Of a stretch of DNA of 64,000 bases, positions 25,119 through 53,164 are shown one piece after another. Every line of letters starts with the position of its first letter. Positions within the stretch are counted from its first letter, which is position 1. The DNA comes from Giardia intestinalis (taxonomy: Eukaryota). The notes below the pieces were generated by a model. That model was not told where the DNA came from and ran no database searches. It saw only the letters and a program-made list of their open reading frames with translations. Both the position numbers and the translations under genes were made by a program. The DNA lies in the NCBI GenBank assembly GCA_000002435.2, contig CM018793.1; one strand, written 5' to 3'.

Positions 25119-25307
25119 CGTTACTGTCTCAAAGTCTGTGCAAGCTTTTAAAGATTTCAGATTAAAGTTTGGCCAGACCTAACCAGAGAAGCCTGCCTTA
25201 GCCATTTCAGCGGATCAGTGGTTCGGATTACTAAGTGACTGCACTGTTTTATAAGTGCCACTGAGCAGGGCGATGACAGAGGGGTGCTTCAAGGTAAATA
25301 TTATAAA

Positions 25308-30009: not shown

Positions 30010-33000
30010 ATGACCATTCGACCTGTTGCGCTACAGCTTAGGATTCCTCGCTCTCTCCTTGTGTTTAACCAGGAGTGCGTCACAGAAGAGGAGCGTTGGA
30101 TCAACTTCTCGTGGATTCTTTCTCCACGGCTTCTTCAAAGCCCACACGTATCACGCCAGACCAGTCGCGCACTAAGCCGCGCAGCTAGCAAGGCAATGTG
30201 TCGCAATCTGACAGAAAGAATTCGGAACACCGCCGGTCGCCCAGACGGCCTAAGGAATTATATCTGGGTTCAGCAAGATCCAGCCACCGCCTTTCGGGGC
30301 TCCCAGCAGGAGAAGCTCCATCCAGCATTCATCAGCTACTCTACTTTCTACCTCCTTCCTGTGTTTGTTAGGACGCTGAACATTTTGACCAATCTAGCCC
30401 ATTGCACGATGTTTGAGAAGATATGTACGCCAGAAATAACTTTGCACAGAGCTGCTGTGGTTACTGTCCCGATCTCTCTCCTGATCCTCAACCAGCACAA
30501 TGCCCCAGTCGCCCAGCCACCCGCCGTAATGGCTCAGATGCTTCCAGAGTGTGTAGACTTGTCGCAGAACCCGTACGTCGCGGAGATTCGGAAAATCAAA
30601 GACAAAGAGTTCGTCGGAGAGATCTACGTAGAGAACAGCTACCTTGCGAATTCTGCCTACACGGTCCTCTTGGACCTAATTAACTTCAACATCTATTACT
30701 TGAGGAAAATGCATGCGCTGACAGATCAGTTCTTTGCCAACTACAAGTATGACAAAGAGTCGATAACAGCACTGTCCCCCTTGGATACACGGCTTGTAAA
30801 AGCGCCTCGAGACACATATATAGTTGAGAGCAACCTAATAGATCAGCACGCCCTTGAAACGTGTAACAGCTTTGCCTCTATCCATGTAGAGGAGCTGGCA
30901 CAAGATACCATTCTTCCACTCTCACTCCCCATGCACTATGATGCTATTTACCCCGTGAAACGAACAACAGCACTCCCTGCTGCACTGCAGAACCTTTTAA
31001 CCGAACATCAGTGGGAGTACAAGCACATACTCCTGACCCTTCTGCATAGGCAATGCACCATTACCAAGACTAGTTTAGGCACTGTGAGCTTTGCATACAA
31101 GGAGGAGGAGTCGGAGCATGTTATTCTGAAGCGCCGTGTCACTTCCCCCATTACTCTGTGCTCACACTATGACGGACCAATGTTTCAGTTCTTTGTGCGC
31201 AGTGCCGCTAAGGGGCCCTCTTTTTTCCGCTTTTTTCGCGGAACGAAGGCAGAGATCCATGGTATCGTGACATATACAGAGCGGTATGGCCCGAGACAGA
31301 CCCTTTCCGCGGACAAGCAGTGGTACGACGAGCAACTAAAGCGTTTAGGCTTTCCAATCATGACGCTCACCAGTGTTTGCATGCAGCTCTTCCCATACAA
31401 GCATTTTGCGTTTTGTACGCAGTCCCACAACGACGATATCAACACTACTAATTTGCCAGCGCAACGAACACCCGGTGGCATACTGGCACGTAGGGGCCAT
31501 ACAGCCCAGGCAGTCAAGCGTTCTAATCCTGCACTTGCTAAACTAATCCCCAACTGCACAGGAAGCTTTTCAGAATTTGGCTTGTTTGGAACGAATCGAC
31601 CATCCTCGCGCAGAGACCTACCATCGCTTCCCATCCACAACGTGACATTAGAGTTGTTAAACGATAACGACCAGAGTCTTCAGAACATGGAGGCAGGTGT
31701 TCTTGCTCACCCTCTAGAAGATTGTGCCACGTTCCCCGGCGCATTATCCGCTGCTTCCAATAGGCCATCGTGTGCATTTGACTCCCCAACACTACTTAGT
31801 TCACCACGTTTCTGCGCTTCCTATGTATCCCTTCAGGTTACATTTCTAAATCTTATATGTAAGTTTATCGACGCCGTCCCTCTATCGATTTCTGCGGTCA
31901 AAACAGGCAAGGAGTCTGTCGGCGTGATCCTTCAAGCATTTAATTCTCTTTTTAGCGCACTGCACGCACGCTACTATGATGTGGGATACAGCTTCATTAC
32001 AATCAAAAAGCGTATATTCTTTCTCCTTAAGTCGTTTTCAACTGAAACGGTTAGCCTAGTAGATTACTACACTCATCACTATCATATAGAAAAAGGGCTA
32101 TCCTCATCGGTCCTCGACTTCCTCATGAATCCCTCAACGAAACGGATGCTCCAGAAAGACTCCTTACCAAATATCTATGCATACATGCATCTATATCTCA
32201 AGAAAGAAATATATCTCGAAGATCAGAACAAATATTATAGGCTTGACAAGATTTCAGACGACGATGATGCAGAGGAAAACGGCACGTTATTTATGAGGAA
32301 GTTCACGGGACCTGGGAAGAAAAACCTTGTTAATTGCTACCTGGGCGACCCCAGTGACCTTCTCGGTGAGGATGGCCAACTGAAGCCGACAGAGGAGGAC
32401 GAGGAGGCAAGTGAAGAAGCGCAGCCAGCATATGTTTGTTCCGGCAAGGTTCCCACTCTAGAGCGGATAGAGGTTGACGAGGCCAGCCCCATGCTCCACT
32501 TTGCCATGCTCTACATCCGTCTCTTCGGTCTATTTGCTCGTGAGCTGACTCCGGTTATATGCAGCTTATTCGCCAGAGATTGCATACTAAGCAACATACA
32601 TCTGGAGAACGAGCTGCTTCGACAGAGCCCGCTTCTGTGCTACAAACTCTTTTGCCGGGTAGTAATATCTAAATTTCAAGAGGCATACCTTCACGATTTA
32701 AATGAATGGGCCGAATACATCTGTCCGCAGTCCCATGTCCCAGTTCCCTCATCCCTGCAGGAATCGTCGCAGCCTTCTTCCGTGATTCAGCCAGAGACCA
32801 CAGTACCTACTCTGGTTTTGGATCTGGAGCCAGTGTCTACCGACGGAAATCAAACCATCACTGCGGCAGCAGCTGTGGCAGACAGTATAATAACGAGGCG
32901 ATTCCTGAGCCAGGGCTTTTTTACCACCTCTGATAGACAGGAGATGGACTTTCTGCACTTTGAGTTTAATTGCCAGCAGATTTCAAAGGATAATAGGCGC

Positions 33001-36000: not shown

Positions 36001-39000
36001 GCTGCCACATCGTTGCCAATGTCCAGCAAACTCGAGAATAATGCTTCTGATACCCTTCTTACGTTGATAGATAGCATGCAAGAGCTACCACCTAGGTCTG
36101 TGCACTCTCAAGACCCAGGATCTACCAATCTGATGGCGAGCAAGCTCAGAGAGCACTATTATGAATTACCCGATCCGCGCAGTGAGAGTAGCAACTCGTT
36201 ATCGGTCTCCAGCACAGTTGCCAGACATCCGGACTCAAAGGATGACTCTGAGTCAGAGATTATCACCGTTGTGACAGCTGATCAACTTCGGAATGATAAA
36301 GGCGCATCCTCAAAGCTCTTGATGACTCAGCTTGCTAACACGCTCGATCCCGAAGATTGTAAGACTACACCTAGCCACAGTGACGATGATGGTGGTGATC
36401 TGCAAGGCAAGACATCTAGAGTTAGCGAGACAGATTCTGAATATAGCGACGGAAAAGACCCCGACGAAAAGCTAGACATTGGTTTATTGCGTATGCGACG
36501 ACAAGAGCCAACTGGCTTTGCAACGTCATACTCGACTGCACAGATGCGCCTAAACACAGCAGTAGCCGAACGCATTAAATTGCAAACCGGCACTGTCAGG
36601 CCAGCCGCTGCAACAAGGATCATAACTGACATATGCGCTGATCGTCAACCACTCTCTTCATCAGACATAGCAGGTCCAGATACACACCTTACAGATACCA
36701 GTTTTCATATGGAGCCATCGTCATCTGCAACGGATACCAAGAACACGCTGCTCAGGCGACGCCCAAAGCTATCCATTAAGACAGAAGCCGATGAGGAGAA
36801 GCAGGAGCCCTGCATGGAGAGCGTCGACTCTGTTGATCCAGACCTTCTTTCTTACCGAATTCAGCAGATTATAACGGACTATTGTAGGAAGAATGAGCAG
36901 CCGCCCTTCACCGTACAGTACTCCAGCTGGATCGACACTGCCGACAGGGTGGTTCAAGTGCACTTGTTGGCTATCACGCAGCGTATCATCTTCCTTTCAG
37001 AGATACGACGCCTTTTTACCAGCAGATGCTTTGTAGAGCGCCTCTTCACAATGCTTGACAAATCGTGCGGGGACATAAGTGTGACGAACGCCAAAGCCCT
37101 GCTTAAGGCAACCACAGTCGATGATATGACGAGACTGCTTAATGCGCAGAACTTTGCGTTGATAACAAATATGACCAGACAGTATGAGCACAATCTAGCG
37201 GCAGAGAAGAAGCTTCACGAAATCTATAAGTGGATTCTTTCCCTTAAAGTCTGGGTTATTAAGTACAGCCTCGATATTCCCCTTCATACTGCCTTCAAGA
37301 CCTATGTGTCGGCCAAGTTAGGCCGCTCAAAGACTCAGTCACACACAAAAAGATCCTACTCGTCACGTGTAAGCAAAGCGCTTCATCGCCCTGCTCGTAG
37401 CGCAATGGCAGACACATCCCCGAGCTCATATCAACTCATTACACGGATAGACCAGGCACGGCGGCCCGTGACTATTGCAGACGTGGACTGCTCCCTTTAC
37501 TGCCCAATAACTCTTGACTACAGTACGCGGTTCCGGAAGAAATATATCAATCACCACAGGCCAACTAGGGTTCTCCTATTTGACAGGCTGGAGCCATTAA
37601 TAGATCTGTTCAAGGATCAAACCATGGAATACGACGCTGTTTATCAGAAGGCTCGTGTTTCCTGCGCAGATGTTGGACCCGGGGATACGTCACTGAGCAG
37701 CGTATCAATAATTTCTGACGACTCAACCTTCAATGAAACGTCTATCAATGTAACACAATCGACCTCGCACAATGCCTCCGGATCCCGGAAGCGTACTGCT
37801 AGCGCCAGGAGGCGTCCTGCTCAGAGCTATGACATGCAAGAAACTATTGAGCTACCGTATCCTTCTCTCCAGCCCTACCTGCTGAAGGCTATACGGGAAG
37901 CGTTGTTCATGGTCTCCACTGTACTCGGAGATGACCAGATAGTAGAGTCTGTCAAGACAATGGCGCGAAGGCTGCACATTTTCCTCTCGGCCGCAAGGAT
38001 CTTCGCAGCTACCGTTGAAAGAGTACGCATGCACCTTCCGGAGGTGCTTGCACTTCTGAATGTGATATTTGACGAGGTTCCAGAAACGAGCTTTCTGTCC
38101 ATTGATCTAGAGCGCTATAAAGGCGTAGTAGCAACCCTGCTTCAGGTCCTTCACTTATTCTCCGAGATCTGCGTTGCAATGCATGAGTCAGATAAGAAGG
38201 TTGACTTGGCCAGGTTTTCCAGTCCTTCCTTCGAGCATTTAAAGGCTGTTTCACTGGTAAAGAATAAGAGACTGGACATCCCAAGATTCGAATTCATCTC
38301 CTTCCTCTCTGATCTCACTGATGACACTTCCGAATATAGTGCGCAAACAAAGCACACTAGATTGGCGAGCTACCTTGACGGGGATAGCACCTGTATGCCC
38401 CTTGCTTTTCTCTTTGAACAGCAACAGTACTCGCTGGTTGAGAACTTCATTGCGGCAGCCAACCAATGTGATGGCCTTTTACAAGACGCTAGAGAGCTAT
38501 TTTGGAAGAAGAGAATTGGACATGTTATTTCAGGCCGTCTTGAGCTGGGGCTTGAAAACCTCCCAGAGTCGTTCTATATTGTTTTTAGCAAATTCAACGG
38601 ATCATTCACTAATGCACAGCTTTCCAATCAATTCTTCGACGTGGCGCACACAGGATCTGAAATGAAGCCTCCTCTCCCTGACCACGTACACACCACCCTT
38701 TCTGGTGTCCTCCAACTCCCATCGCAGCGAGACACACGCCTACAGACCACAAGGCATCGAGGTGGGTCCTACGTTAGTGCCAGATCTGCTCTGCCCACTA
38801 CTCGCCTCTCAGCAGACACCTTTAGCAAGCTTAAATATGCATATACATCGGGTCACATCATTGCAAACAAGCTCCTGTACTCTAAAGGTGGCACACAGAT
38901 AAGCTTCTTTGGAATCCAGAGTGGCCACGAAGCCATTCTTTATGATAAGGTAATTAACTTACGATGCCGCTTGCACATGGCGTCTGTACTCCTTCATCCC

Positions 39001-42000
39001 AAGATTCTTACCTCGGCCATCCAGGCAGAGTTCCGTAAAGCAATCATCCTTCTCCTCAACGAGCAATATTCTCAATGCCTGTGCTACTGCACCTACCAGG
39101 CAGTTATCTATGCGCTCTCTGCATGCGTGCTCGTCTACCTGGATGGAAGATATGAGTCATTTGAGTACTGCTACTACCACGTTCTTGGTGGACTGAAGCG
39201 AATTATCGAGTGCTCTTATCCGGACCTCCTTGCCCACATGGGCAATGCAAGCGCTTCCATCTTTAACAGCCCAACTGACACTGACACAGCGGTAACAAAG
39301 CTTTTCACTTTAAAGGCAATCTATGCTAGAGTCATAGAGTTCATGAACTTGTTAGACATTATCGCCCTTAGCGTCGTTTCATATATATTCTCACTAAACC
39401 CGCTCTATTTGTCTCGGTTTCACAAACTTGAGCCTCCCTTTTCTCTGCAGAACTACAGTAAGCTTCTAACAAAGTTTTCTAGGAGTGCCATGCTCAACGA
39501 GCGTAGTAAGAAGCAAGGAATCTCACTGTCTTTTATGCATAACAAGTTCACATCATGTCTTTTCTTATCACTTCCGAGTCTGAAGCTGTTCCAGAAGACC
39601 CACTGTAGCTATGACGCCGCAAGAATGGATGAGAAGGCCCTTATTACAGAAGCATACAGAAGGGCTGTAGTGGCCCTGCGGCGAGCAGTCCCATTACGTT
39701 CGGTGCTTGAGATGCAAAGCGCGTCTCATGGACTTTCAGATATAGTCGCAGTTCCGGACATCCGGACAGTGAGTTCTGTGGAGTCCACTAACGATGAGGA
39801 CTTCAGCGACGCACAAGCAGGCACACCAAGCAAAGCGCTAGCGACGTTTTCGAGTGCAGAGATCGCCTGCCTGTCCCCTGGTGTAGCTTCCGCTCCGCCA
39901 GTGGCTAGCGGTGCTGCTGTTTCACATGGATTGTCTAGAGGAGAGGGAGAGACACTCTTTATTGATCCTCTTCCTCGGCTAGTGCCGAACGACATTGTCT
40001 ACATAGATGCAGACGAACATGGGGATATAGACATACCGCTAGAAACTCCTGCGTCTTTGACATCTATTCTGCTAGGGCCGTGGGGACTGAAAGACTTCAA
40101 TCTTGCCCATGTGTCTTGCTGTACTCAGTATGATACGGTTTTTATTGACTACACACACAAACGCAAGTGTGCACTTCTCATCAGCTCATTGATTGACAAC
40201 ATTCCAGTAGTGATATTCACCGACCGGCACATGGGCTATCGAAGCATGGAGGTCCCATACATTCTGGAGCACGCTACGAGATTATCTGGACTACGCTATT
40301 GCTTCCTCAACGTCGCTCCAGGGAAGCTGGAAAGCTATCGCATGGCGATCTATGCAAATATGCTATCCGGAGTGACGACAGTCTTAACGGGACTGGAGCT
40401 CTCCGCCACGGATGGACATGCAGAGTGGGCATTGATATCTGCGTTGTTTACGCTCTCACCTGGAGCAGATTTCCCACCCATCTATGATCGCATAAGCGCA
40501 ACTCCCATGGACTCAAAGGCATATCGCAACTCATGGCACACATCCAGACTCGGAGGAATCATCTTCTGGATTGCAGACGCAGTATGTCTGAACAACAGCG
40601 AGGACCAAAACTACATTGTTTCTGATTGGGCCCTCAAATTTCTTCGCCTCTTTAGGCAAAAGACCCAACTCTACTTTCCCACCTCATACCTCACTAACGA
40701 CTGTCATGTGCTTGCAATGGAATACACTATGGATATGCCTACCTACATCCAGCGCATATCCTTCATTAAGAATCAGTTCAGCGCCAGCATATTTGATCTG
40801 GTCAACAAGAAGGCCACACTATCAGAGAACCTATCCGTAAAGGCGTCCGCTTCTCTCGCAAGTTCTGTCATTTCGTCGAGGGAAACCATAAAAGCAGCTA
40901 CATACGCGGGCAGCAGCCACCTTCCGCGCCTATTCAACGATCTCCACATTGTTTCGGATCTATCCTCATCTTGCACACTCGAGGCTCTCTTTTGCATCAT
41001 CCCACAGTTTTCTAGCCAGCTGGCAATATTTGCAGAGTTCCTATTGCGTCAAACTACCGCTTTTCCAAAGCTGGTCCTGGGGGATATCCGTACCATTATA
41101 CAGACATTGCAGTCGCCCATTACAGCGCTAAACATGTCTCTTGCCCTGCTCTTTTATTTGACCGTCCTAATGTGGACAGAGGAGACTGCGACAAACCAGT
41201 TTTCTGCGAAACAGATGTATTTGATGGAGTACTTGGCAACATTGTTTCACCTCGATGCACACGAGCGCTCAAGGTTTAAATCTCTGGTAGAGTCTCCTCT
41301 CAGCAAGTTCGAGCAGATCATTCAGACTTACGCTTCAGACACGTATATCTCACAGTTGGGCCTCTTGGCACAAAGCTCTGGCCTCCTCTCTTTGTTTGGC
41401 TCTCACTCGCTTTTCACACTGGGCCGCATTTTGGCAACTGGCAGGCCGTGCCTCCTATTTCTGGACACCATGGACCCCGGAACGCTCACCCGCATTCAAG
41501 CTGGCGTTGAGCATGTGTCACGTCTTCATGTCCTAATAGTCTATAGTATCTATGATCTATTTGAGATGACGGAGTCCATAGAGAGGAGCGCAGATGACAC
41601 CGGCCTCATGCTAGTGTGTGCCGACCCAGCGGACTCTCACTGGATCGGATCCATTTTTGCCATGTGCTCGTGCAGGCAAGAAATATGCCTTCCAAATAAA
41701 ATCAGGTATGTGTTCCCTCGCCATTGTAAAGTAGTCGTTGTGGCGCACTCAAAGTGCCTATCTTTGAGGAAAATATCCTGTCCAAGTATCCACTTTAATC
41801 GAAACGTGCACCTCTCTCCTCTCGGTCTCCTCCAAGTCAGCTTCTCTTCAGTAGCCTTCCTAAATATGAAGTACTTCAATGACATCAGAAACATCGAAAC
41901 AAGCCACCTGTCAACATACAAGGATGTCGTCGAGCACATAGCAATGAAGTATGACGTTGACTATCACCTCTATACGCACGCAGAAGAAACCCGCATCAAG

Positions 42001-45000
42001 CAGGACGTCTATCTCAATTACCTCAATTTCTTTTATTACAATCTAACAATCTTGGCGTCGCGAAGAGTATTTAACATGTATGCGTTTACAATCAGGGATT
42101 GGCGCGTACTAAAGGCATTGATCACGCTCTTTCTTGTGTACGATAATGTCCTGAACATCAAGCACTACATGGACGTCATGGACGGCGAGGATTATCGGTT
42201 ATTCATCGGATCCTCCACTAAGCAGCAAGCAAAGCCAGGCTCTGCAGACATAAGGGCCCCAGAACAAAGCACCATGTCTCAGCAGATAGCAAGAACTATA
42301 GAAGCCGTCCTTCCCCCACGCCGTGTCTCTGATCTGAATCCGTATGCAGAGCTTGCTTACTTTTCATATTACGATCAGGAGGAGCGCAGATCAGAGAAAA
42401 ATGAGGCAGAATACATCAAGGAGTGCCGCAAAGACATTGACTTTTCGGCAGTTGGTCTGTCCGACCTGCGCTATATTACCGGAAGCCCTATCTATCTGCC
42501 ATGGGCGAGCAACTTCAGCCGTAAAACGCAGATCATTTGCGAGTTTAGTTACTCCTTTACTAAGCTTATCTTTGTCAACACTAGCACTGCAGAAGTTATC
42601 AGGAGGATCCACTCATCAATCTTTGCCGCCATCTTTAACGCCTTTACCCTTCTTATTGCAGCCCCTTATGAGCTTCATAGCGCAGAGCAGGACAGCGCAA
42701 GCTATCGCTCCTACTATCGGAGATATTTGGAGCTTCTTCCCTCCTTTCTTCACCTTGTGCACAAGTTCTTTTGCCCTGCGTATCTCTTCCATTCTAACCC
42801 ATCAATGCAGCAATGGTTCGTCAGCTTCTATGCGTCTCTCAAGGCTAGCCTGCAAGACCTTTATGCAGTACAGTTATCTATGCACGGCTTTATAGGAGCG
42901 GAGAAATACTGCAGGTACACATGCCTGACCCATACACAGAGCATGTCCGATGTCACACTTCTTCGAGCAGCTAACTTTCTGGGTGTCAAGAACCAACTCC
43001 GTAGTGACGTGGTAGAGCATGTCCAGCTATTCAACTTAAAGTGTGGGCAGCTGGATAGAGAGGCACAGGAGGATCTCTGGATCCCCGGGGAACAGCAGCT
43101 GCCCTCAGCCAGATATGACAAGCTTTCGCTCAGCCAACTAGACAAAGATTCATTTCACACAGCAGAAACATCATCTACCACAGCTATTGCAGATACTCCT
43201 GCTTCTGAGCAGAGTTGCCGCGCATCTACTGATGGCGATTCAGTGCTTCACCGGACTCCCCAAATAGATAACGTTTTGTTGAAAAGATTCGCAGAAAAGG
43301 CCTATGTACACGAATTATTCGATTCTTACCATGACCTTGGCCGTAGTAGAGCTGAAGAATGCATGCACCTGCAAATTGCTGAAGATCTCAAACAAGAGCT
43401 TCCCAGCGATCTACAGCTTAGCGGGCACGATAGTCATCTAAAGCCTGTCACAGACATATCCCTGACAGGTTCTGCTCCTCACTGTAACACCTCCAGGACT
43501 ACTGAAGAGAAACAAGAGCTAGAGGGGCCTGCATCTTACCATAATCCAGACACCACTTCTGAAGCACAGCTTGATTCTGCGCATGCAACTGACTATTTGG
43601 CGTTTGTGCGGCAAACATATCAATTCCTCCCTGTCCCATACCACATAGGAGATGGCTTGTTTTCTAATCCTGCACTATCTCACTATATGCAATTGTATAG
43701 CGATAACGACGTAGAGCCACCACTGATCATAACTACTGAGCTCTCTGCAGTTGCTGTCTTTTTAGCCGGGCTCATTTTAGCAGGTGAGTGCTTTGCTCTG
43801 ACTGGCAAGCGGTTCTCGGGGAAGACAACTCTTCTGAAATTGGCATATGCTCTTCTTCCTCAGAATATTGTGTCTCTAACATCCTTTAGGGTTCCGTGTG
43901 GAGAGGATTTGGACCCGCAGGAATTCATGCAAAGGATCCTTCAAAGAAACCTAGTCTTTAAGCCAGACACAACCAGTCCCGGTGAGCGCTATAGTGTCGC
44001 GTTGCCTGAACGAAAACTCCTCGTCGCTCATATAGAGAGGATCGATCAAGGAGCCTGGGAGAAACTAATGAATCTCAATCTGCAAAGTGGCTTGCTGAGC
44101 CTTAGCCACAATGTCTCGCAGAGCCTCGAGCTGGGATCAGACAACGTGGGAGTGCTGTTTCTTCCTGGAGTGGTCTTTGCGTATGAGGCCTCCGCCGATT
44201 ACTCCGATCTGTCAAGCAACCAGAATGACCTTTACTTTATACAGCACTCCAGCACCTCCACGCCATCCTTCCTGCATAACTTTCTCTACTGGGGCTTGAT
44301 TCGGCGTCGCTTTCATCTTTCGGACTATGTGCCTCTAAGTGACTCGTCCGCTCCACTCAACGGAGGGCATGCTCTGGAAGATTATTTTTCGAACGCATTG
44401 CTTACCAAATTGCATGAGGCAATCTGTGCAGGACCGTCCAAAGATGTTCAGAACTCCTATACTAGGGTTTCGTATCGAAACAAGACGCCGCAGCTCCACG
44501 AAGAAACACTTTGTAAGCTTCCAGTGCCAAGCGCTGAGCTTCCCAACACTCTTAAGACGTTCGTTCATTTTCTCAAGCAACTGGAGAGCACCACCCCCAT
44601 TTCATCTCTACGCCTTGTTTGGTCGATGCTTCAAAACTCTGCCAGTGACGACGGCTTTCTGGTCACGTCAGTTAATGTTCCTCCTGTTCCTATCTCACGA
44701 GAAAATGCATGCTTCCAGTTTCCGTGCATTAACCTACTGCTATCTACTATCGTCCGTCACACAGAGCTTCCAGTTGATGTGGTTTTTCAATCTATTAGTC
44801 AGCTGATTAATACCAATACCCTCGACGAAGTTCTCAAAGGGAAAGAGGAACTGCCTTCCAGTAGCCTTCCGCTACGAAGGGCAGATCCTGGTAATCTGTA
44901 TCTACTCCATGAAGGGTGGATCCAGGGCCTTAGCTTGCTTCTAAAGCACCATGATCAATCCATTGAGGACTTTGTTATGGATTTAGCTGGCGACTCCTAT

Positions 45001-48000
45001 TATATGAAGCACAAGAGGATACTCTATTCGCAGGAGGACCAGTTGAGCGGGCGCAGCCCATCCCACACAAGGGTTCTGCTTCCCTACTTTAGCAAAGCTG
45101 GTCACATGCTGTACTTCAAAACAGACTTAGGTGGCCATAGCTCTCCAGATCGTCGCGCTCTAGCTGCCTCCAGCGGCTTTTTCTCTGACCCCCACTTGAT
45201 TGGAAGCCTTACCTCCGGCCTTGGTCTGATGAGCAAGCTCCGTCCGCAGAGCACTCTTGACTCTGAAAGACTCAAGGCAAAGCTTCCGCAGCATCTTCTG
45301 GACAAGGGAAGCATCTTGATGGGGCGGAGCCTGCGTGCCTCGATGATGAATATAGACGGAGTCCAAACCTTTCCATCTGGCGAGCTGGTCTATCCGCAGG
45401 ATCAAGCAGATTGCCCTGCAAGGGCTGTCAGCTCCAAAGTGCTTTCCTCGGCCAACCTTTGCCGATCGCGCGTAGACATAGATAGCGACTCGTCAGAAGA
45501 AGACGATAAGATGCAGAAAAGCTTTGTGCTTGAGCAGCAAGCCTCTCTGGAAGAGCAGAAACACAACGTTGTTGCGTGCTTATTGTCACGGTGCCGCACG
45601 GTAGCACACGTTGACACCTATGCAATAGCTGCGATTATACACATTTATCTGGCGATTACTAGAGCGTTTCAGTCCAATGTCTTGAAGATGGCAGAGTACC
45701 TCCTTTACATGCGAAGGGGATCAAACCGCGCTTGCCCACAGTTTGTGCAATTCAATCCCTTGGCAAACCCGCCAAGAATGCCCATTATCAACATGCTCGT
45801 TCCATCTGGGTCGACACATTTTGACTCTTATTCCCAATATCTCCAGGTCCTAAGAAGTATAGGGAAGTACGTCATGTTCGACACAGTGGAGTTCTTCGAG
45901 TTTGTTTGTAGAAATACATACAGTCCGAACAATGGAATTCTGAAAATATCTATCGAAAAAAAGGCTGAGACGTTCAGAATCTATGAGAGCGCTGTTTTGG
46001 AAGAAGTTTTAGGAAGTTCGGTTCAGAAGATCGAGCCTGATGCTGCCCCAAAGGCCAAAAAGGAAGTAACCCTCCGGAACGTCTTTCAAGGACGCGTCGC
46101 TTTTGCTAATTACGCGGTCCATTTAGCACGAACTCACCGATTTATCATTGACATCAATCAGGTCCTGCAATACGTCCAGGCAGCAGCAAGATGCATCAAA
46201 CCCGCCAGCACTACGCACGAGGTTTACCACAGCAATAAGGATCCCTTAGAAGATGAAGAAGAGCTGTCAGACGAGGACCAATTCGTCTCTCGTGTCGATC
46301 CACGAGTTCTGCGAAAAATGCCACTCAAGCCAGTCATCTCACCGGATGGAACTGAGTTCAAGAGGAATAACGAAGTGGTGAAGACGTATAGTGGGAAGCT
46401 GTCCAAGACAGATCCTTTCTTCTGGATATTCAAGGAACAGGAGGACAGGACTGGCGGCGGCTTCGTTCCGACGTATGACTACAGACACCACCGGCATCGC
46501 TATTTCAATAAGCTTGTTTCTGTGTTTCTTGATTCTCACGATCCTCGGCAGCTAGTACACTACATCATCCGATCAATGCTTCTCATGGCCCTGGGTTTCA
46601 GCCCTCTCCTCGGTTTTGTTGATCTGTCATATTTCAAGCGTGATGTCTACAACTATCGGACATGCTACACATGTGAGCTATGGCCCTACGTTGACATGGA
46701 GAAAATGCAGACAGATTTGGAGGCTAGCGATCTTGCCGAGCTTGTTCTCACCGAGCCCTGCGACATACTTCTGACGGTCCCTTTCGAGTACCTTGATCGC
46801 AAGAAGATCAGTTTTCTCCCAGAAAGCTGTCCTTACTTCAGCCCCACAGAGCTCAAGTTCCTAGGCTACCTTGTCTCCTTTGTGTATGGACTGCAGCACC
46901 TACTTTCAGAAACAGAGCTGTTGTGGCTTTGTAGTCGCAACCTAGCCATTGTTATTCTCGAGGGCGGCGAGGTGTGCAATACAATCGACTCTGTGCGCTA
47001 TACGGCATTTTCACCCCGCATACACACGGCTTTATTGGAAGAGCGACTCAGCAGGCTACACCCCCGATTAACTACCACATACAATGACGCGAACCAGCAG
47101 CCTATTTCTCTGCATGTGTCTTCTGCCATGAAGCAAGCATTGAGCAGCCTCGCCACGAAGGGATTGCTGTTGGAGCGCAATATAGGGTCACCTAAGGGAG
47201 ATTCTACTATTGGTTCTCTGGAGAACTCGATTCCGTACCAGTTTCTCAAGATCCTTAACGAGAAATATAATGCAGCAAAGATGCTGAAAAATGGCCCTTT
47301 GCCAGGCGTCCTTCTGATTGCGGAGATAGCATGGAAACTCTATGAGTATCGTGTTGAGACACTTAGCAATATACTACAGGCATGCAATACGATTTTGTGG
47401 GGGGCTAATAGACTCAATGCCGACGAGCTAGTGGCAGACAATGGGCCACAAACGCCGCTTAGCCATATGCACACAAGTAGTGTCAATACCTCTGTGCGGT
47501 CCTTTTCAGCTGTATCGTTTTCTGTGCCTAATACGCAGTCTAGATCAAGGACGAGAAAGCGCGCTCTTAAGTCAAGAACCAGAGACCAGCAGACCACGAG
47601 TCAGACAATTCATGAGTCTGCCTTTGGCATCAACTCATTACTCAGTGAGCCGAAGGGCTTTAAAGCCGAGGCCCTCGATCCAGAGCCGGCTCATGAGGTG
47701 GACAGAGATGAGGTGACACAGCGCTATCTGACTATCATTCAGGAGATGAAATCTGAGTTAGAAGGTCTGCTACCTTGCCAACTTGAAGCGTGTATTGATA
47801 TGGCTGTGAGGTTTCTTTGTCTCAGTGAAGACTGCTTTAGCTCCTCTGATGCTGGCAGGGATGCTGCTTCATCGATGTCCTTATCACAAGGAAAGAGGTC
47901 TGTGTCTGCTTCTATGGCACATGACGTATTTAAGCAACACCGCCATTCTTGTGATAGCGAATCAGATCCGCACTTACCACCTACCTGTGCCTGCACTACC

Positions 48001-51000: not shown

Positions 51001-53025
51001 AGACGGTACAAGGAGTACTTCACCTTAGTTTTGGCACTAGCGGCAAGAAATACAGACATCGCCAAGCAACTGTGCGCACTGTCCGCAGATGAGTCCCAGT
51101 TGATAGTGTCGCTTCTTTTATTCTTCAGTGCAATGAATCACAAAACCAGTAGGATCTCCTTCGTGGCAAAACAACTGCGCTCATGTGACAGCCACGGATC
51201 TCCTGTCTTTGGTCCGTGCATCGTTCACTCTGAGCATATATACTTCACATGGTTAATAGAAGCATTTTCCACGATGCAGCGCGGATGGGCCACTCTTACA
51301 GAAATACGGGCATTCCTCCAGACGTACATAGCGCCAGAGGAACAAGCATTTATGGAGAACACGGCAGAGGACAACGCAGAGTACGAGCAGACGCATCGTT
51401 ACTCACTTGAATCGCTGATAACAACAGCTGCAAAAATAATGGGCACACTTGCAGCAGAGGCGACTAAGGAGCGAGAGGGCCGCACGAGCGCCTTAGCCGC
51501 GGCAGACAAATCAGCAATCAATCTCTTGAACCTGTCTCTTCCATGTCGCGTAGCACGGGACTTCTCCCAGTCGAAAAAGCAGACGGCTTGCTCGCCTCTT
51601 CGCGCTAATTATCTCCTCGAAAACATTTTCAGCCACCAACTGATCAAAGCCTTTGAGAAGGGCGCTGTCCTCGGAAAGTACCCCCTGGTGTATCCACGTG
51701 TGTGCATTAAGGCTAATTTCTATAGACAAGATGAAACAATAGATGGAGAAGAGCCTCCTATTGACCCAGTGTGTGCTACTGACCTGAGCGCAACCGCGTC
51801 AGCGCCAGATAAACACGCCTCGGGTGAGTGCGCTTACGGGGCCAGTATTTATAATGTCAGCGAACAGGACACGTGCTCTGCAGACAGAGGAAGCTCCTCG
51901 AACAACATATTGTGTTATTTAGATCATGGTGGCAATGCAGGGCAGACAGACACTGATTCAATAGACAGTACAAGCCAGGATCCGCAGCATACATATGCGT
52001 GCGAGATAGAAGACTACACAGTATCATATGCACGGGAAATCGGTACATGTAGCATGGACATAGCCGAAGTATCTGCGCTAGTTACCAGTAGTACACCACT
52101 CATGCAATCCCTTGAGAGCGTAGGTCGCGCCTTCGAGACGCTTGCATCTGTAGCAAGAATCCATGGGACGCCAGAACAAAAGTTCCTCCTAAGTCAGCCT
52201 ACGTGCCTTACTGACAACTCTTCTGCTCAAGAGTATAGTGAAGCGATGCTTAGCTTAGCAGTCCGCGTGATTACGACTGTGTGTGGCGCTCCCCAGACTC
52301 TTTTTTACGATAAGACGATGGAGTATGGAGACGACTCCAGAGGAATCTCACAACTTCTTGTACAGTACTCAACACTCAGCGATTATGCTCGCCCAGCAGC
52401 GCTCCCTTATGCACAGCACTTAGTGGAGGACGCCAGCCTCATGTTGCGGAGTCTCGGACGCTCCGGCGGGCTCATGACAGCACACCCCTGTGTCTATGGA
52501 TCAGCGCTATTTGAAGTCATGGCGTACCACAAACTTAGCTTTGCCAGCGCATACTCTATTCCCCCAGAAAACGTACGCACCGCATTATTCGCCAAGTTCC
52601 CAGATTGTACAGGATATAACCACGCCATCGTAGGCGAAAGCATGATCGTGGAGAAGCGAGAAGACGGGAACCCAGAATACAACTACATACCATTCTGCAC
52701 CAAGCTAGTCGGGATGAAGCTGTATGGAATGCTTTACGACGCACAGACGGGATCTCTAGTGGACTTTATAACTCCCGCACACAGGACTCCGTCTAGAATC
52801 GATGTCTACGCAGTCCCCCTCTGCTACGAACCGAAGGAGGAGACACAGCAGCATACAGACCCAGCCCACCCAGGGAGGCAGGGCCCAGATACGCAGCCCA
52901 ATCCCCTACAATTTGTGCGCGTGCGATGTCCGCCGCTGCCAGGCATATACGCATACTTCAGGAATGAGACCGGCCTGAAGGCCGACGAGCTCCTGCAGCG
53001 GGGGCTGCGCCTGGAGATGGAGTAA
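30010..53025 (+). CDS. giant hypothetical protein, 7671 aa, single exon, with one P-loop (Walker A) motif near aa 4600
   Basis: The ORF-track start at 29986 is TTG, preceded by an in-frame TAA at 29956. The first ATG is at 30010 (MTIRPVALQL). The ORF is uninterrupted for 23 kb, which is impossible by chance. A Walker A motif GKRFSGKTT lies at 43804-43830, followed by LLVAHIERIDQGAWEKLMNLNLQSGLLSLSHNVSQSLELGSDNVGVLF. I can call no other domain. The protein is mostly predicted helical with Ser-rich linkers. Confidence 0.8.
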   Translation: MTIRPVALQLRIPRSLLVFNQECVTEEERWINFSWILSPRLLQSPHVSRQTSRALSRAASKAMCRNLTERIRNTAGRPDGLRNYIWVQQDPATAFRGSQQEKLHPAFISYSTFYLLPVFVRTLNILTNLAHCTMFEKICTPEITLHRAAVVTVPISLLILNQHNAPVAQPPAVMAQMLPECVDLSQNPYVAEIRKIKDKEFVGEIYVENSYLANSAYTVLLDLINFNIYYLRKMHALTDQFFANYKYDKESITALSPLDTRLVKAPRDTYIVESNLIDQHALETCNSFASIHVEELAQDTILPLSLPMHYDAIYPVKRTTALPAALQNLLTEHQWEYKHILLTLLHRQCTITKTSLGTVSFAYKEEESEHVILKRRVTSPITLCSHYDGPMFQFFVRSAAKGPSFFRFFRGTKAEIHGIVTYTERYGPRQTLSADKQWYDEQLKRLGFPIMTLTSVCMQLFPYKHFAFCTQSHNDDINTTNLPAQRTPGGILARRGHTAQAVKRSNPALAKLIPNCTGSFSEFGLFGTNRPSSRRDLPSLPIHNVTLELLNDNDQSLQNMEAGVLAHPLEDCATFPGALSAASNRPSCAFDSPTLLSSPRFCASYVSLQVTFLNLICKFIDAVPLSISAVKTGKESVGVILQAFNSLFSALHARYYDVGYSFITIKKRIFFLLKSFSTETVSLVDYYTHHYHIEKGLSSSVLDFLMNPSTKRMLQKDSLPNIYAYMHLYLKKEIYLEDQNKYYRLDKISDDDDAEENGTLFMRKFTGPGKKNLVNCYLGDPSDLLGEDGQLKPTEEDEEASEEAQPAYVCSGKVPTLERIEVDEASPMLHFAMLYIRLFGLFARELTPVICSLFARDCILSNIHLENELLRQSPLLCYKLFCRVVISKFQEAYLHDLNEWAEYICPQSHVPVPSSLQESSQPSSVIQPETTVPTLVLDLEPVSTDGNQTITAAAAVADSIITRRFLSQGFFTTSDRQEMDFLHFEFNCQQISKDNRRYVTGGDTEGLSNLKIIYANSLDFELSQFRTLIAAIFTSVTELKCNIEQHLEFDLLFLSRSVVPGFDSLLSLQDYVIQHVQKEMELIQESLTDNILNPQTFRDDIKRAEYLTEISSSRIPDFITSYYNMRKEMRIQYSRLLMANMQELTRVKEVYGLSLKRLNENLHDRRAFDRSILHLERDVFVAFEKLLSSIGSVSQLCLAFIEQEFGTNNLHISAKNLVFSLCFDPLQDVKKLETVSEDRHGKKAVSVVYPPKFLLNCEGSQLIVFSFESLLGLDTPLEQSASTKGSGRGRAIDGMSLPIGATIPRYNEPCNGASAVGASSLLDHSKMLELIENAIVVTKDIITYIENNLLPLPDVLYTRFATYTIKILKNQAINKLLSLVRKIRQHVQETIYAVIREASQRIQAFKGSLVVDVDTPDNLELVLQSKNAAQRFLTIWMPAVFVCLLALPKMSYLESYRHVSSIQCINSDPEIELRPGSTAQEQQRSTTQPPDIYTLLESDVSFDQKMDHLFDAQFWMRCRRDVEVYEGVRQKEVQKQIEKQQELIRQQEVERRDMIKKLARGSSELADEDPACLQNLHNEFVSEKGLLSVKKIPLTRKYLSSEAKASSIKLQPILRKQSALVSYRQELLMLDLCDYKFNILDFIQLLASIKALMRRADRNIQAKICPFSKYIYLSVEYLMYLRTVCTNYAVEICYMTAADLILSVRNPSQFRIKYPYMTSNLVLNQIDPYFASEDIEVSYAYLNFLQRSTSLAITRYANERALSLSALYTRPSDSNLVGVDSVVTLDDFLAFLIQRVSAQDSRRGYNTSTKSAGETDTYYDIYHIFSDIGHIASESQKIYNSLEKWAMLVGIKLSISKPTFLEVTTSLKHPISFFLSLINIYATYAQSLKASINFFNYKFFEKHSEELYLAAREMHLADKQRFKCAQEKSKSRNVKSSSFFIEALDQSSSSNPHRIRQSGAVHRRSPAESTLKGQVAHTASVASISRYMDSTIVLDGSAATSLPMSSKLENNASDTLLTLIDSMQELPPRSVHSQDPGSTNLMASKLREHYYELPDPRSESSNSLSVSSTVARHPDSKDDSESEIITVVTADQLRNDKGASSKLLMTQLANTLDPEDCKTTPSHSDDDGGDLQGKTSRVSETDSEYSDGKDPDEKLDIGLLRMRRQEPTGFATSYSTAQMRLNTAVAERIKLQTGTVRPAAATRIITDICADRQPLSSSDIAGPDTHLTDTSFHMEPSSSATDTKNTLLRRRPKLSIKTEADEEKQEPCMESVDSVDPDLLSYRIQQIITDYCRKNEQPPFTVQYSSWIDTADRVVQVHLLAITQRIIFLSEIRRLFTSRCFVERLFTMLDKSCGDISVTNAKALLKATTVDDMTRLLNAQNFALITNMTRQYEHNLAAEKKLHEIYKWILSLKVWVIKYSLDIPLHTAFKTYVSAKLGRSKTQSHTKRSYSSRVSKALHRPARSAMADTSPSSYQLITRIDQARRPVTIADVDCSLYCPITLDYSTRFRKKYINHHRPTRVLLFDRLEPLIDLFKDQTMEYDAVYQKARVSCADVGPGDTSLSSVSIISDDSTFNETSINVTQSTSHNASGSRKRTASARRRPAQSYDMQETIELPYPSLQPYLLKAIREALFMVSTVLGDDQIVESVKTMARRLHIFLSAARIFAATVERVRMHLPEVLALLNVIFDEVPETSFLSIDLERYKGVVATLLQVLHLFSEICVAMHESDKKVDLARFSSPSFEHLKAVSLVKNKRLDIPRFEFISFLSDLTDDTSEYSAQTKHTRLASYLDGDSTCMPLAFLFEQQQYSLVENFIAAANQCDGLLQDARELFWKKRIGHVISGRLELGLENLPESFYIVFSKFNGSFTNAQLSNQFFDVAHTGSEMKPPLPDHVHTTLSGVLQLPSQRDTRLQTTRHRGGSYVSARSALPTTRLSADTFSKLKYAYTSGHIIANKLLYSKGGTQISFFGIQSGHEAILYDKVINLRCRLHMASVLLHPKILTSAIQAEFRKAIILLLNEQYSQCLCYCTYQAVIYALSACVLVYLDGRYESFEYCYYHVLGGLKRIIECSYPDLLAHMGNASASIFNSPTDTDTAVTKLFTLKAIYARVIEFMNLLDIIALSVVSYIFSLNPLYLSRFHKLEPPFSLQNYSKLLTKFSRSAMLNERSKKQGISLSFMHNKFTSCLFLSLPSLKLFQKTHCSYDAARMDEKALITEAYRRAVVALRRAVPLRSVLEMQSASHGLSDIVAVPDIRTVSSVESTNDEDFSDAQAGTPSKALATFSSAEIACLSPGVASAPPVASGAAVSHGLSRGEGETLFIDPLPRLVPNDIVYIDADEHGDIDIPLETPASLTSILLGPWGLKDFNLAHVSCCTQYDTVFIDYTHKRKCALLISSLIDNIPVVIFTDRHMGYRSMEVPYILEHATRLSGLRYCFLNVAPGKLESYRMAIYANMLSGVTTVLTGLELSATDGHAEWALISALFTLSPGADFPPIYDRISATPMDSKAYRNSWHTSRLGGIIFWIADAVCLNNSEDQNYIVSDWALKFLRLFRQKTQLYFPTSYLTNDCHVLAMEYTMDMPTYIQRISFIKNQFSASIFDLVNKKATLSENLSVKASASLASSVISSRETIKAATYAGSSHLPRLFNDLHIVSDLSSSCTLEALFCIIPQFSSQLAIFAEFLLRQTTAFPKLVLGDIRTIIQTLQSPITALNMSLALLFYLTVLMWTEETATNQFSAKQMYLMEYLATLFHLDAHERSRFKSLVESPLSKFEQIIQTYASDTYISQLGLLAQSSGLLSLFGSHSLFTLGRILATGRPCLLFLDTMDPGTLTRIQAGVEHVSRLHVLIVYSIYDLFEMTESIERSADDTGLMLVCADPADSHWIGSIFAMCSCRQEICLPNKIRYVFPRHCKVVVVAHSKCLSLRKISCPSIHFNRNVHLSPLGLLQVSFSSVAFLNMKYFNDIRNIETSHLSTYKDVVEHIAMKYDVDYHLYTHAEETRIKQDVYLNYLNFFYYNLTILASRRVFNMYAFTIRDWRVLKALITLFLVYDNVLNIKHYMDVMDGEDYRLFIGSSTKQQAKPGSADIRAPEQSTMSQQIARTIEAVLPPRRVSDLNPYAELAYFSYYDQEERRSEKNEAEYIKECRKDIDFSAVGLSDLRYITGSPIYLPWASNFSRKTQIICEFSYSFTKLIFVNTSTAEVIRRIHSSIFAAIFNAFTLLIAAPYELHSAEQDSASYRSYYRRYLELLPSFLHLVHKFFCPAYLFHSNPSMQQWFVSFYASLKASLQDLYAVQLSMHGFIGAEKYCRYTCLTHTQSMSDVTLLRAANFLGVKNQLRSDVVEHVQLFNLKCGQLDREAQEDLWIPGEQQLPSARYDKLSLSQLDKDSFHTAETSSTTAIADTPASEQSCRASTDGDSVLHRTPQIDNVLLKRFAEKAYVHELFDSYHDLGRSRAEECMHLQIAEDLKQELPSDLQLSGHDSHLKPVTDISLTGSAPHCNTSRTTEEKQELEGPASYHNPDTTSEAQLDSAHATDYLAFVRQTYQFLPVPYHIGDGLFSNPALSHYMQLYSDNDVEPPLIITTELSAVAVFLAGLILAGECFALTGKRFSGKTTLLKLAYALLPQNIVSLTSFRVPCGEDLDPQEFMQRILQRNLVFKPDTTSPGERYSVALPERKLLVAHIERIDQGAWEKLMNLNLQSGLLSLSHNVSQSLELGSDNVGVLFLPGVVFAYEASADYSDLSSNQNDLYFIQHSSTSTPSFLHNFLYWGLIRRRFHLSDYVPLSDSSAPLNGGHALEDYFSNALLTKLHEAICAGPSKDVQNSYTRVSYRNKTPQLHEETLCKLPVPSAELPNTLKTFVHFLKQLESTTPISSLRLVWSMLQNSASDDGFLVTSVNVPPVPISRENACFQFPCINLLLSTIVRHTELPVDVVFQSISQLINTNTLDEVLKGKEELPSSSLPLRRADPGNLYLLHEGWIQGLSLLLKHHDQSIEDFVMDLAGDSYYMKHKRILYSQEDQLSGRSPSHTRVLLPYFSKAGHMLYFKTDLGGHSSPDRRALAASSGFFSDPHLIGSLTSGLGLMSKLRPQSTLDSERLKAKLPQHLLDKGSILMGRSLRASMMNIDGVQTFPSGELVYPQDQADCPARAVSSKVLSSANLCRSRVDIDSDSSEEDDKMQKSFVLEQQASLEEQKHNVVACLLSRCRTVAHVDTYAIAAIIHIYLAITRAFQSNVLKMAEYLLYMRRGSNRACPQFVQFNPLANPPRMPIINMLVPSGSTHFDSYSQYLQVLRSIGKYVMFDTVEFFEFVCRNTYSPNNGILKISIEKKAETFRIYESAVLEEVLGSSVQKIEPDAAPKAKKEVTLRNVFQGRVAFANYAVHLARTHRFIIDINQVLQYVQAAARCIKPASTTHEVYHSNKDPLEDEEELSDEDQFVSRVDPRVLRKMPLKPVISPDGTEFKRNNEVVKTYSGKLSKTDPFFWIFKEQEDRTGGGFVPTYDYRHHRHRYFNKLVSVFLDSHDPRQLVHYIIRSMLLMALGFSPLLGFVDLSYFKRDVYNYRTCYTCELWPYVDMEKMQTDLEASDLAELVLTEPCDILLTVPFEYLDRKKISFLPESCPYFSPTELKFLGYLVSFVYGLQHLLSETELLWLCSRNLAIVILEGGEVCNTIDSVRYTAFSPRIHTALLEERLSRLHPRLTTTYNDANQQPISLHVSSAMKQALSSLATKGLLLERNIGSPKGDSTIGSLENSIPYQFLKILNEKYNAAKMLKNGPLPGVLLIAEIAWKLYEYRVETLSNILQACNTILWGANRLNADELVADNGPQTPLSHMHTSSVNTSVRSFSAVSFSVPNTQSRSRTRKRALKSRTRDQQTTSQTIHESAFGINSLLSEPKGFKAEALDPEPAHEVDRDEVTQRYLTIIQEMKSELEGLLPCQLEACIDMAVRFLCLSEDCFSSSDAGRDAASSMSLSQGKRSVSASMAHDVFKQHRHSCDSESDPHLPPTCACTTDFLLEEFSYFTIPESYPTPALLTAFFNILHINLGEALAIAEILLDSKARCLPEEFRSGEMRSYAKSLLVDRRMLSIFAIYLISAQIPRLVPLLPFNYSFIVVLVLEACQRPALFKDLVLRRKDADIDVDAEFRISYVNCAVSKQEFAKSLDSILQDDGNQDGAVVLYNCFSCKGQATEYLVTFISLLSSATLLHGDTLVFDGATRIRLKYDLARTRFYFTSARNVDYSSLSKLQESVYPIYTPQYLQQALIHRIEALKSGETVQDPTDGLKELFIDLFYYMLHYCTMYDTHPLFRNLLLLEAKRDVIREVLKTSATIHSITMAERGAISSAKRQIMGSIYKDATALLPKVMLLKRGCLNGQQLEDTPQLMQKIAQAYAALFGYFYSLSADYQQVLSLLTPRFFAGWLDNMIELIHHSRCSMGDPTITQLVGWLAHHTVRYPLQYVSRLLPLTKIEPVLFTCTAIYCTALEHMSTKELSVIKLLIAIEDNQLHTLERIILRGGKKEAAEYDATQRPFIKMLSLAEEDCAAAALIANCCGFPSQKASNAWIRLSVLYAFLPKLVGPWVAHFRKERRSFVKLASGNTFRSLLNQYLGLESEPACKFIGTEELFQSRVAGVNRDSVTAIDHLIRDQRIPYYQRKRAKTAPSKKQTEGAYTKKATIKPMIINQPLPKLADNVQAVAQPEKDLSGDNRTDATVHREVDRSNLQIKELFLLSYTSMNGSFCPQRRQLLTTASSTAQQHEADSDTLLLQSTAKGLDLELEKCTEPLALPADMTSYSIRTIWKALLLSLACDREARSDACSLLLRICPLCNVTDTVKEYYKELSADSTALAEFLGVSGGTLSPNLTLIVRSHLLPHSCEEESQPLGAVLQEMDPQVSAARRNLLLWYDESVDIERLISYSYTCVWKSLSSYSSLSFSRYPTKEMLMTPESVIAVICVDPNLQISHLLAIREGLCDTTAASIIICIPSSSRPSVTVSQVIALTNIFCTRTESLIMPECVFRRYKEYFTLVLALAARNTDIAKQLCALSADESQLIVSLLLFFSAMNHKTSRISFVAKQLRSCDSHGSPVFGPCIVHSEHIYFTWLIEAFSTMQRGWATLTEIRAFLQTYIAPEEQAFMENTAEDNAEYEQTHRYSLESLITTAAKIMGTLAAEATKEREGRTSALAAADKSAINLLNLSLPCRVARDFSQSKKQTACSPLRANYLLENIFSHQLIKAFEKGAVLGKYPLVYPRVCIKANFYRQDETIDGEEPPIDPVCATDLSATASAPDKHASGECAYGASIYNVSEQDTCSADRGSSSNNILCYLDHGGNAGQTDTDSIDSTSQDPQHTYACEIEDYTVSYAREIGTCSMDIAEVSALVTSSTPLMQSLESVGRAFETLASVARIHGTPEQKFLLSQPTCLTDNSSAQEYSEAMLSLAVRVITTVCGAPQTLFYDKTMEYGDDSRGISQLLVQYSTLSDYARPAALPYAQHLVEDASLMLRSLGRSGGLMTAHPCVYGSALFEVMAYHKLSFASAYSIPPENVRTALFAKFPDCTGYNHAIVGESMIVEKREDGNPEYNYIPFCTKLVGMKLYGMLYDAQTGSLVDFITPAHRTPSRIDVYAVPLCYEPKEETQQHTDPAHPGRQGPDTQPNPLQFVRVRCPPLPGIYAYFRNETGLKADELLQRGLRLEME

Positions 53026-53164
53026 ACAAAAGCAAAGAAGGAGCGAAACCGTGCGGGCCCGAAGGCTAATGGCATGGCCGCCTGCTCAGCTGCGTGCGGC
53101 ACCCTCCCCGGGCTTCCCCGTTTTATGGAGTGCGAGACGGCTATCTCGGCTGAGGCCATTTACA

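Follow-up and report, generated by a model that had tools for sequence, protein, structure and literature searches.

The stretch of Giardia intestinalis DNA analysed here (64,000 nucleotides of contig CM018793.1, assembly GCA_000002435.2; hereafter the window) is dominated by GL50803_137689, a gene for a giant protein with a single nucleotide-binding motif, whose possible relation to dynein heavy chains is the subject of this work.

The giant gene and its family

GL50803_137689 occupies positions 30010 to 53025 of the plus strand as a single exon of 7,671 codons followed by TAA, and translation from the ATG at 30010 met zero internal stops. The product is identical (0 mismatches) to the annotated protein of G. 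intestinalis WB C6 (XP_001706798.1, UniProt A8BI98, P0004), a "hypothetical protein"; the open reading frame (ORF) itself is thus already known. In the ORF listing the same frame runs from 29986 to 53025 (+), with TTG as first codon and 7679 amino acids (aa), and one automatic annotation (ESU39258.1, 7,679 aa) likewise begins at this TTG, 8 codons 5' of the ATG. This start is an artefact of a bacterial start rule. Two observations favour the ATG at 30010: assemblage B retains the N-terminal peptide MTIRPVALQL..., and the 7,671-aa annotation matches this start. Hence, two claims of the original prediction, an uninterrupted 23-kb ORF of 7671 aa and a true start at 30010 rather than at 29986, were confirmed by translation, by identity with the annotation and by the assemblage B orthologue.

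This orthologue is an intact ORF of 7,678 codons at a syntenic locus, with 70% identity. Between WB and assemblage B, synonymous sites are saturated (synonymous divergence, dS, ~1.7), and the ratio of non-synonymous to synonymous divergence (dN/dS) is 0.10 overall, ranging from 0.06 to 0.17 across all sixteen 500-codon windows. Since this ratio is low in each window, the entire 23 kb behaves as one protein-coding unit under purifying selection, and GL50803_137689 is one real gene under selection. An annotation or assembly artefact, in which several genes were fused or a non-coding ORF was called, could be invoked because the gene identifier is absent from the supplements of two proteomics papers and the locus has no transcript or peptide support. 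Against this stand the selection seen in 16 of 16 windows, the identical 7,671-aa ORF across numerous independent assemblies (the 90% cluster has 39 members) and the collinear giant homologues, comprising a paralogue, that of G. muris and that of a further diplomonad; together they make such an artefact highly improbable. A literature search for 137689, A8BI98, GL50581_234 and GMRT_14745 returned no real mention, the sole string match being GL50581_2343.

Relatives were sought by a word-indexed search and a full HMMER search over 1.84 billion representative proteins, and the matches of both consisted of Giardia-lineage proteins and fragments only. A giant paralogue of 7,808 aa (P0032) is collinear over almost the full length with 22-30% identity (~25%); it is regarded as a paralogue because its cluster includes GL50581_234 of G. 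intestinalis GS. The G. muris homologue, GMRT_14745 (6,408 aa), is collinear and alignable solely in islands. The locus of this orthologue (L002, CM016926.1, 1746809-1786035) is not syntenic with that of G. intestinalis, its neighbours being an ABC transporter, a WD40 protein, kinase-ankyrin proteins and a kinesin.

One family fragment led to a 6.8-kb metagenome contig (L003, ENA ERZ11466750, 1-6834) that encodes a partial homologue of 2,278 aa, collinear with the G. muris protein and matching it with an E-value of 1.6e-23 around the P-loop. Its reading frame holds 42 TAA or TAG codons and 2 TGA codons, so that TAA and TAG must be read as an amino acid in this organism. TAA and TAG encode Gln in the genetic code of hexamitine diplomonads, and the source appears to be a hexamitine, or else an enteromonad, diplomonad. 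This organism recurs in several metagenomes (L004-L010) with the sample labels LOKM19 and BRIT16, which resemble those of human-gut studies, so that a human-gut origin looks likely. Further contigs of this hexamitid homologue gave no useful extension of L003, and two JGI metagenome scans yielded no additional family relatives. As judged from these comparisons, the family is diplomonad-wide and diplomonad-restricted, very fast evolving and broken by polar, poorly conserved inserts.

One conserved nucleotide site

The translation bears out GKRFSGKTT at aa 4599-4607, the only classical motif named in the original prediction; it follows a hydrophobic strand, as a Walker A does. The underlying pattern, [AG]xxxxGK[ST], is expected ~0.23 times by chance in a protein of this composition; a match alone therefore proves little, and the evidence lies in its conservation. 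Indeed, G-x-x-x-S-G-K-T-T is invariant in five lineages, all four full-length members (4/4) carry exactly one Walker A in the same alignment column, and the hexamitid partial homologue has it at the corresponding position. In the four-way alignment, where invariant columns amount to 6.2% overall, SGKTT is the longest invariant run, which argues for a functional phosphate-binding loop rather than the "relic" NTP site that had been proposed, the Walker A being the most conserved motif in the protein. A second match to the pattern, GGDLQGKT at aa 2128, falls in a low-complexity region and has no counterpart in assemblage B, in the paralogue or in G. muris. In substance, the P-loop is thus solitary, as had been predicted.

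Where a Walker B would be expected, the hydrophobic strand closes with a His that is invariant (LLVAH / FNILH / LLHMH / LQIFH), giving hhhhH in five lineages, and no canonical Walker B ([LIVMFA]4-D-[DE], hhhhD[DE]) was found anywhere in the WB protein. Around the P-loop, Pfam and PDB searches gave only sub-threshold generic matches of ~25-45 residues (RecA, ABC, FlaI, AAA_14, AAA_22). Tile searches with Pfam and PDB HMMER, which had been suggested as a check for an AAA+ fold, recovered no AAA+ family and generic P-loop matches only. The AlphaFold2 model of aa 4536-4945 is poor, with a predicted local distance difference test score (pLDDT) of 41.3; its best part, at a pLDDT of 50-65, shows helix/strand alternation after the P-loop followed by helices, and in this prediction resembles an alpha/beta NTPase core. 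Neither two AlphaFold runs nor fold searches led to a fold assignment.

These data bear on the mechanoenzyme option of the original prediction and, more widely, on an active AAA+ machine (motile dynein, or remodeller of the midasin or RNF213 type) that would hydrolyse ATP at the aa 4599 site. The perfect conservation of the Walker A under strong divergence suggests that nucleotide binding is probably functional, and a conserved Glu that ends the next strand (YEAS / YEIS / LESE / TEAS) could in principle be catalytic. Such an enzyme is nevertheless very unlikely given the invariant His in place of Walker B, the lack of hhhhD[DE] in the whole protein and the single Walker A per full-length member. 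Besides, no midasin, dynein or AAA match was obtained with Pfam, and no D.S.S motif of the MIDAS type lies near the C-terminus. Garbarino and Gibbons are said to have described a separate midasin gene in Giardia in 2002.

An ABC-type ATPase is suggested by automatic GenBank naming, since orthologues and the paralogue (ESU39258.1, ESU45201.1 and ESU44786.1) are entered as "ABC transporter ATP-binding protein", and ABC_tran indeed matches 27 residues at the P-loop with E-values of 0.18-0.25. This match reaches 12 bits where the Pfam cut-off is 25, no member has an LSGGQ-type signature or a Walker B, and the His, ~55-70 aa after the Walker A, is too close for an ABC H-loop by the usual spacing rule. 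The probability of an ABC-type enzyme is thus practically nil: the ABC naming of the giant proteins is wrong and this reading is effectively refuted.

Possible dynein-like modules along the chain

For comparison with dyneins, fragments were retrieved with baits based on human DNAH5. The AAA1 fragment (P0054) and the C-terminal fragment (P0174) so retrieved were each 100% identical to the bait, and a third bait stretch was 100% identical to DNAH5 residues 2562-3130 in PDB 8j07, the search output of which also supplied real AAA3 and AAA4 sequences of four dyneins. Profile-profile (hhalign) scores were set against nulls from column shuffles, reversed columns and other real windows of the protein.

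When the family alignment was scanned in 200-aa windows with dynein AAA2, a match emerged unexpectedly ~700 aa upstream of the P-loop, over 127-145 aligned columns that cover the AAA2 large domain. In this alignment LFGSHSLFT faces dynein LGPSGAGKTT as a decayed P-loop, the core GLMLVCADPADSHWIGSIFAMCSCRQEICLPNKIRYVFPRHCKVVVVAH aligns with the dynein AAA2 block, and GLMLVCADPADSHWIGSIF...CKVVVVAH aligns with dynein ...CKIIFEPH. The four-way alignment scored 33.3 with the trimmed template (E 1.7e-4, Prob 50%, 141 columns) and 30.0 with the full one; WB, assemblage B and the paralogue together scored 37.9 (E 2.6e-5, Prob 75%) and 35.2, and WB alone 29.0 and 24.9, respectively. Null maxima were, for shuffles, 22.0 and 16.6 (two runs, trimmed) and 22.8 (full), for reversed columns 15.6 and 18.0 (trimmed and full), and for 68 other real windows 20.1 and 25.6. 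The AAA2-like match is thus free of the P-loop and lies above all three kinds of null with two templates, and the ~25%-identical paralogue both strengthens it and aligns in the same register.

The distance from the Walker-B block of the AAA2-like module to the Walker A is 723 aa in WB, 764 in the paralogue, 547 in G. muris and ~400 in the hexamitid homologue (mapped from alignments). For DNAH5 we take the AAA2-to-AAA3 distance to be 253 aa and the AAA2-to-AAA4 distance 619 aa, with AAA3 and AAA4 placed from PDB 8j07 and a provisional AAA2 coordinate. Because the compact hexamitid homologue favours the next module, the Walker A module is tentatively numbered AAA3 by position.

A second, independent match was obtained at the C-terminus. 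With the last 132 residues as query, KLVGMKLYGMLYDAQTGSLVD...VYAVPL aligned over 53 columns with ...MPVIRIYA of the dynein C-terminal domain (CTD), above the maxima of 150 shuffles (24.8), 56 other windows (21.7) and reversed columns (12.7), with P ~5e-4 by a Gumbel estimate. The paralogue and G. muris alone matched the same template columns with a score of 22.7, reached by 0 of 80 shuffles. The motif is located ~65-125 residues before the C-terminus in the family and ~50-100 residues before it in dynein. In the AAA3 scan, the top window matched the C-terminal half, or lid, of AAA3 (FNLRDLSR region); this AAA3-lid-like match appears marginal, its score being reached by 2 of 100 shuffles (P ~0.02). 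Along the protein the matches follow each other as AAA2-like module, Walker A, AAA3-lid-like block and CTD, which is the dynein order.

Several observations weigh against descent from dynein. The AAA2-like score collapsed to 12.0 (trimmed) and 17.6 (full) when WB and assemblage B were combined with G. muris, and a separate, poorer 3-sequence alignment (A5) gave 19.5 and 16.8 (E 0.27 for the latter, a score repeated in a second hhalign run), in the same register. The hhalign probabilities are modest (13-75% for the AAA2-like module, 3-7% for the CTD), the templates are shallow and come from one subfamily (outer-arm gamma), and the windows were picked after ~375 window-template comparisons. The Walker A module rose above the null against dynein AAA1, AAA2, AAA3 and AAA4 profiles only when the P-loop columns were included, and no internal repeat of this module was detectable. 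AAA1, AAA5 and AAA6 were not found in the dynein profile scans. Pfam searches of WB tiles, four C-termini, the AAA2-like region of three members and the hexamitid homologue gave no match to the dynein models (AAA_6/7/8/9, AAA_lid_11, Dynein_C, DHC_N2) at E-values up to 1-10; with neighbours and the members of the P-loop alignment included, Pfam gave the family generic P-loop matches only, and phmmer and hmmsearch of five regions or alignments against the PDB found nothing dynein-like. The AAA2-like region had no Pfam or PDB HMMER match; the CTD region was negative with HMMER, Pfam and the PDB, and a dynein C-terminal hidden Markov model (hmmsearch --max) returned negative scores. Conservation is higher in the N-terminal half than in the putative motor, the opposite of canonical dyneins. 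Two further by-eye likenesses were rejected, that of the last 45 residues to the dynein C-terminal end (score reached by 13 of 150 shuffles) and that of HPCVYG...IPPENV to the dynein PxxFWLSGFF region (null level).

The segment 5' of the P-loop, which looks by eye like dynein AAA1, was also discarded, as it fell to null level once the P-loop was removed. The W-E-x-LN segment after the P-loop, located at aa 4670-4717, had been quoted in the original prediction as recalling dynein AAA modules; it was null against AAA2, AAA3 and AAA4 once the P-loop columns were removed, so that this resemblance is statistically unsupported. The dynein-related option itself gains support, from the AAA2-like module and the C-terminal motif instead of the segment cited for it. 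No AAA1-like match beyond a generic P-loop was seen for the catalytic dynein AAA1 (Walker A GPAGTGKT with Walker B hhhhDE). For the stalk, the C-terminal template set, which held one stalk-bearing fragment and was not complemented by dedicated profiles of the stalk, the microtubule-binding domain (MTBD) or the linker, gave no match outside the CTD motif.

The same data could be explained by a lineage-specific diplomonad invention, i.e., a giant, mostly helical scaffold with disordered inserts and one P-loop NTPase domain, in which the dynein matches are convergent or due to chance. No known family was found with Pfam, PDB HMMER or the 1.84-billion-protein search, the P-loop matches are generic only, internal AAA repeats are lacking, and the dynein matches vary with alignment composition after many window-template comparisons. 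What such an origin leaves unexplained is an AAA2-like match of 127-145 columns without any P-loop contribution, its strengthening by a distant paralogue, and an independent match at the corresponding C-terminal position of both proteins, in dynein order. Such an unrelated scaffold is the main rival reading and is considered less likely.

With moderate confidence, GL50803_137689 is read instead as a hyper-divergent, enlarged and catalytically decayed dynein-heavy-chain-like scaffold. The giant is not filed as a dynein heavy chain, as neither the sequence models that define that family nor its catalytic AAA1 are found in it; it may nonetheless derive from one and work like a non-motile one. Dynein descent, the module numbering, nucleotide binding without fast hydrolysis and a cytoskeletal role are what we infer as most likely. 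The family would consist of giant cytoplasmic proteins whose ancestor was a dynein heavy chain and which have decayed too far for ordinary sequence searches to recognise, with a hugely expanded, comparatively well-conserved N-terminal part of ~3,400-3,700 aa followed by remnants of the AAA+ ring split by disordered, lineage-specific inserts. These remnants would comprise the AAA2-like module without P-loop, then the Walker A module (tentatively AAA3), a possible AAA3-lid remnant and a CTD remnant (Table 1). A canonical Walker B is missing from every module, and in the only one with a Walker A an invariant His takes its place; the protein would therefore be unable to run a dynein ATPase power-stroke cycle. 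Canonical dynein AAA2 binds nucleotide as a structural cofactor, and the one site of the giant probably binds it in the same way, as a structural cofactor or slow switch. Its role would then be that of a non-motile scaffold or regulator, which might plausibly work on the Giardia microtubule cytoskeleton. The cell plan of this organism relies on elaborate microtubule structures, namely eight axonemes with long cytoplasmic stretches, a ventral disc and a median body.

Compared with canonical dynein heavy chains (human DNAH5, PDB 8j07; Pfam AAA_6, AAA_7, AAA_8, AAA_9 and Dynein_C), the giant is likewise one very long chain, along which an AAA2-like large domain (with the ...CKIIFE block), then a Walker A module and finally a CTD-like motif follow each other in the dynein order. 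In contrast, it is 1.7 times longer, has no Pfam dynein domain, one Walker A instead of four and no Walker B, and contains large disordered inserts, while AAA1, linker and stalk/MTBD are not identifiable. With midasin/Rea1 and other AAA_5-type multi-AAA proteins it shares giant size and, in the AAA2-like module, a Walker-B-to-beta4 block of the dynein/midasin type; unlike midasin, as judged by Pfam and motif, it gives no Pfam match and lacks a MIDAS domain, the six AAA modules at the N-terminus and, within the final 480 WB residues, a D.S.S motif.

A closer parallel in concept is offered by DNHD1 and DNAHX, non-motile "ghost" dyneins with many insertions and an AAA1 without Walker B, which are predicted to be scaffolds or regulators, DNAHX being reportedly absent from protists (bioRxiv 10.1101/2025.01.18.633724). 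The likeness, one of description and not a sequence link, lies in the combination of inserts with decayed catalytic motifs; both proteins are still recognisable as dyneins by sequence, whereas the giant is far more decayed and much larger. Kollmar (2016; PMC5100056) described dynein heavy chains of Giardia and Spironucleus that could not be classified, among them one whose tail cannot be aligned with any known class, and reported that Giardia lacks the cytoplasmic DHC1 (dynein-1). The giant is probably not among these orphans, because they were found by motor-domain homology and it has no motor detectable by HMMER. A bolder proposal sees in the giants a class of dynein heavy chains that is ancient, catalytically dead and so far overlooked, and larger than any other known protein derived from dynein. 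Duplicated in Giardia and maintained by purifying selection throughout diplomonads, they would serve, with a single structural nucleotide site, as cytoskeletal scaffolds in a cell that reportedly lacks cytoplasmic dynein-1 (Kollmar, 2016). Taken as a whole, this is unlikely.

Surroundings of the gene and significance of the family

The features of the gene are collected in Table 1. The island aa 2961-3125 is the best conserved outside the P-loop and gives, by eye only, the impression of a dynein linker motif; in the four-way alignment, its YALS ranks second in length among the invariant runs, and the densest 12-aa window starts at C3027. In the insert at aa 4349-4528, identity between assemblages A and B dips to 0.53-0.59 and the paralogues do not align. 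A composition scan gave further polar low-complexity inserts, including aa 1915-2303 and 5798-5908. The AT-rich element upstream of the ATG is taken to be a candidate Giardia initiator, and the AGTAAA at the stop presumably fits the Giardia polyadenylation signal consensus, as a candidate poly(A) signal.

Table 1. Features of GL50803_137689 and its flanks (window positions; aa, residues of the WB protein)
Feature	Position	Strand	Basis or remark
AT-rich element TAATAAAT	29976-29983	+	~30 nucleotides 5' of the ATG; read from sequence
In-frame TTG taken by the ORF lister	29986-29988	+	ORF listing
Best island shared with G. muris, aa 2961-3125, motif C.YQA..YALS	38890..39384	+	BLASTP E 2e-10
AAA2-like large domain with degenerate P-loop, aa 3778-3925	41341..41784	+	hhalign, P-loop-less
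Polar low-complexity insert, aa 4349-4528	43054..43593	+	between AAA2-like block and Walker A module
Walker A module, predicted alpha/beta, aa 4547-4800	43648..44409	+	conserved in five lineages
Walker A GKRFSGKTT, aa 4599-4607	43804..43830	+	family consensus G-x-x-[FYQ]-S-G-K-T-T
Invariant His4674 at Walker B position	44029..44031	+	family alignments
AAA3-lid-like block (marginal), aa 5588-5698, invariant LL.L.SRN	46771..47103	+	hhalign 20.7, E 0.034
Dynein CTD-like motif, aa 7547-7605	52648..52824	+	hhalign 29.3, E 0.005
AGTAAA hexamer	53021..53026	+	overlaps the TAA stop of the giant gene

Upstream of the giant gene lies a second very large ORF (15852-25118, minus strand, 3,088 aa) that has no Pfam match; assemblage B has a 3,068-aa gene at the corresponding position, upstream and on the same strand. 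Between the two large ORFs, 25284-26132 (+) encodes an NLI-interacting-factor-like phosphatase (E 1e-44). A protein kinase fused to ~12 ankyrin-repeat units, of the NEK-ankyrin type, is encoded at 10272-13931 (+), its listed TTG start being probably an artefact of the bacterial start rule, and an ankyrin-only protein at 58847-60115 (+); kinase-ankyrin and ankyrin-only neighbours are typical of Giardia. The remaining genes include a cytidylyltransferase-like protein at 646-1395 (+; E 1e-11) and an ORF at 1421-3385 (-) with a weak match to the NAD-nucleotidase C-terminal domain (E 2e-4, below the Pfam cut-off). The ORFs 9347-10279 (-, 310 aa) and 9450-10082 (+, 210 aa) overlap on opposite strands, and probably no more than one of them is a gene.

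The literature searched holds no account of the family, its paralogy, the hexamitid member, the conserved Walker A paired with a Walker B His, or the dynein traces. Two paralogues of 7.7-7.8 thousand residues represent ~46 kb of coding sequence in a 12-Mb genome, and standard domain searches miss this giant family completely. Should the dynein link fail, few orphan protein families would be larger than this one, whose single NTP site is rigorously conserved. If the dynein link is true, the family would show, in a natural example under purifying selection, to what extent a motor can be reduced to a scaffold that binds nucleotide, and would extend the "ghost dynein" idea, so far embodied by DNHD1 and DNAHX, to a deep-branching protist.

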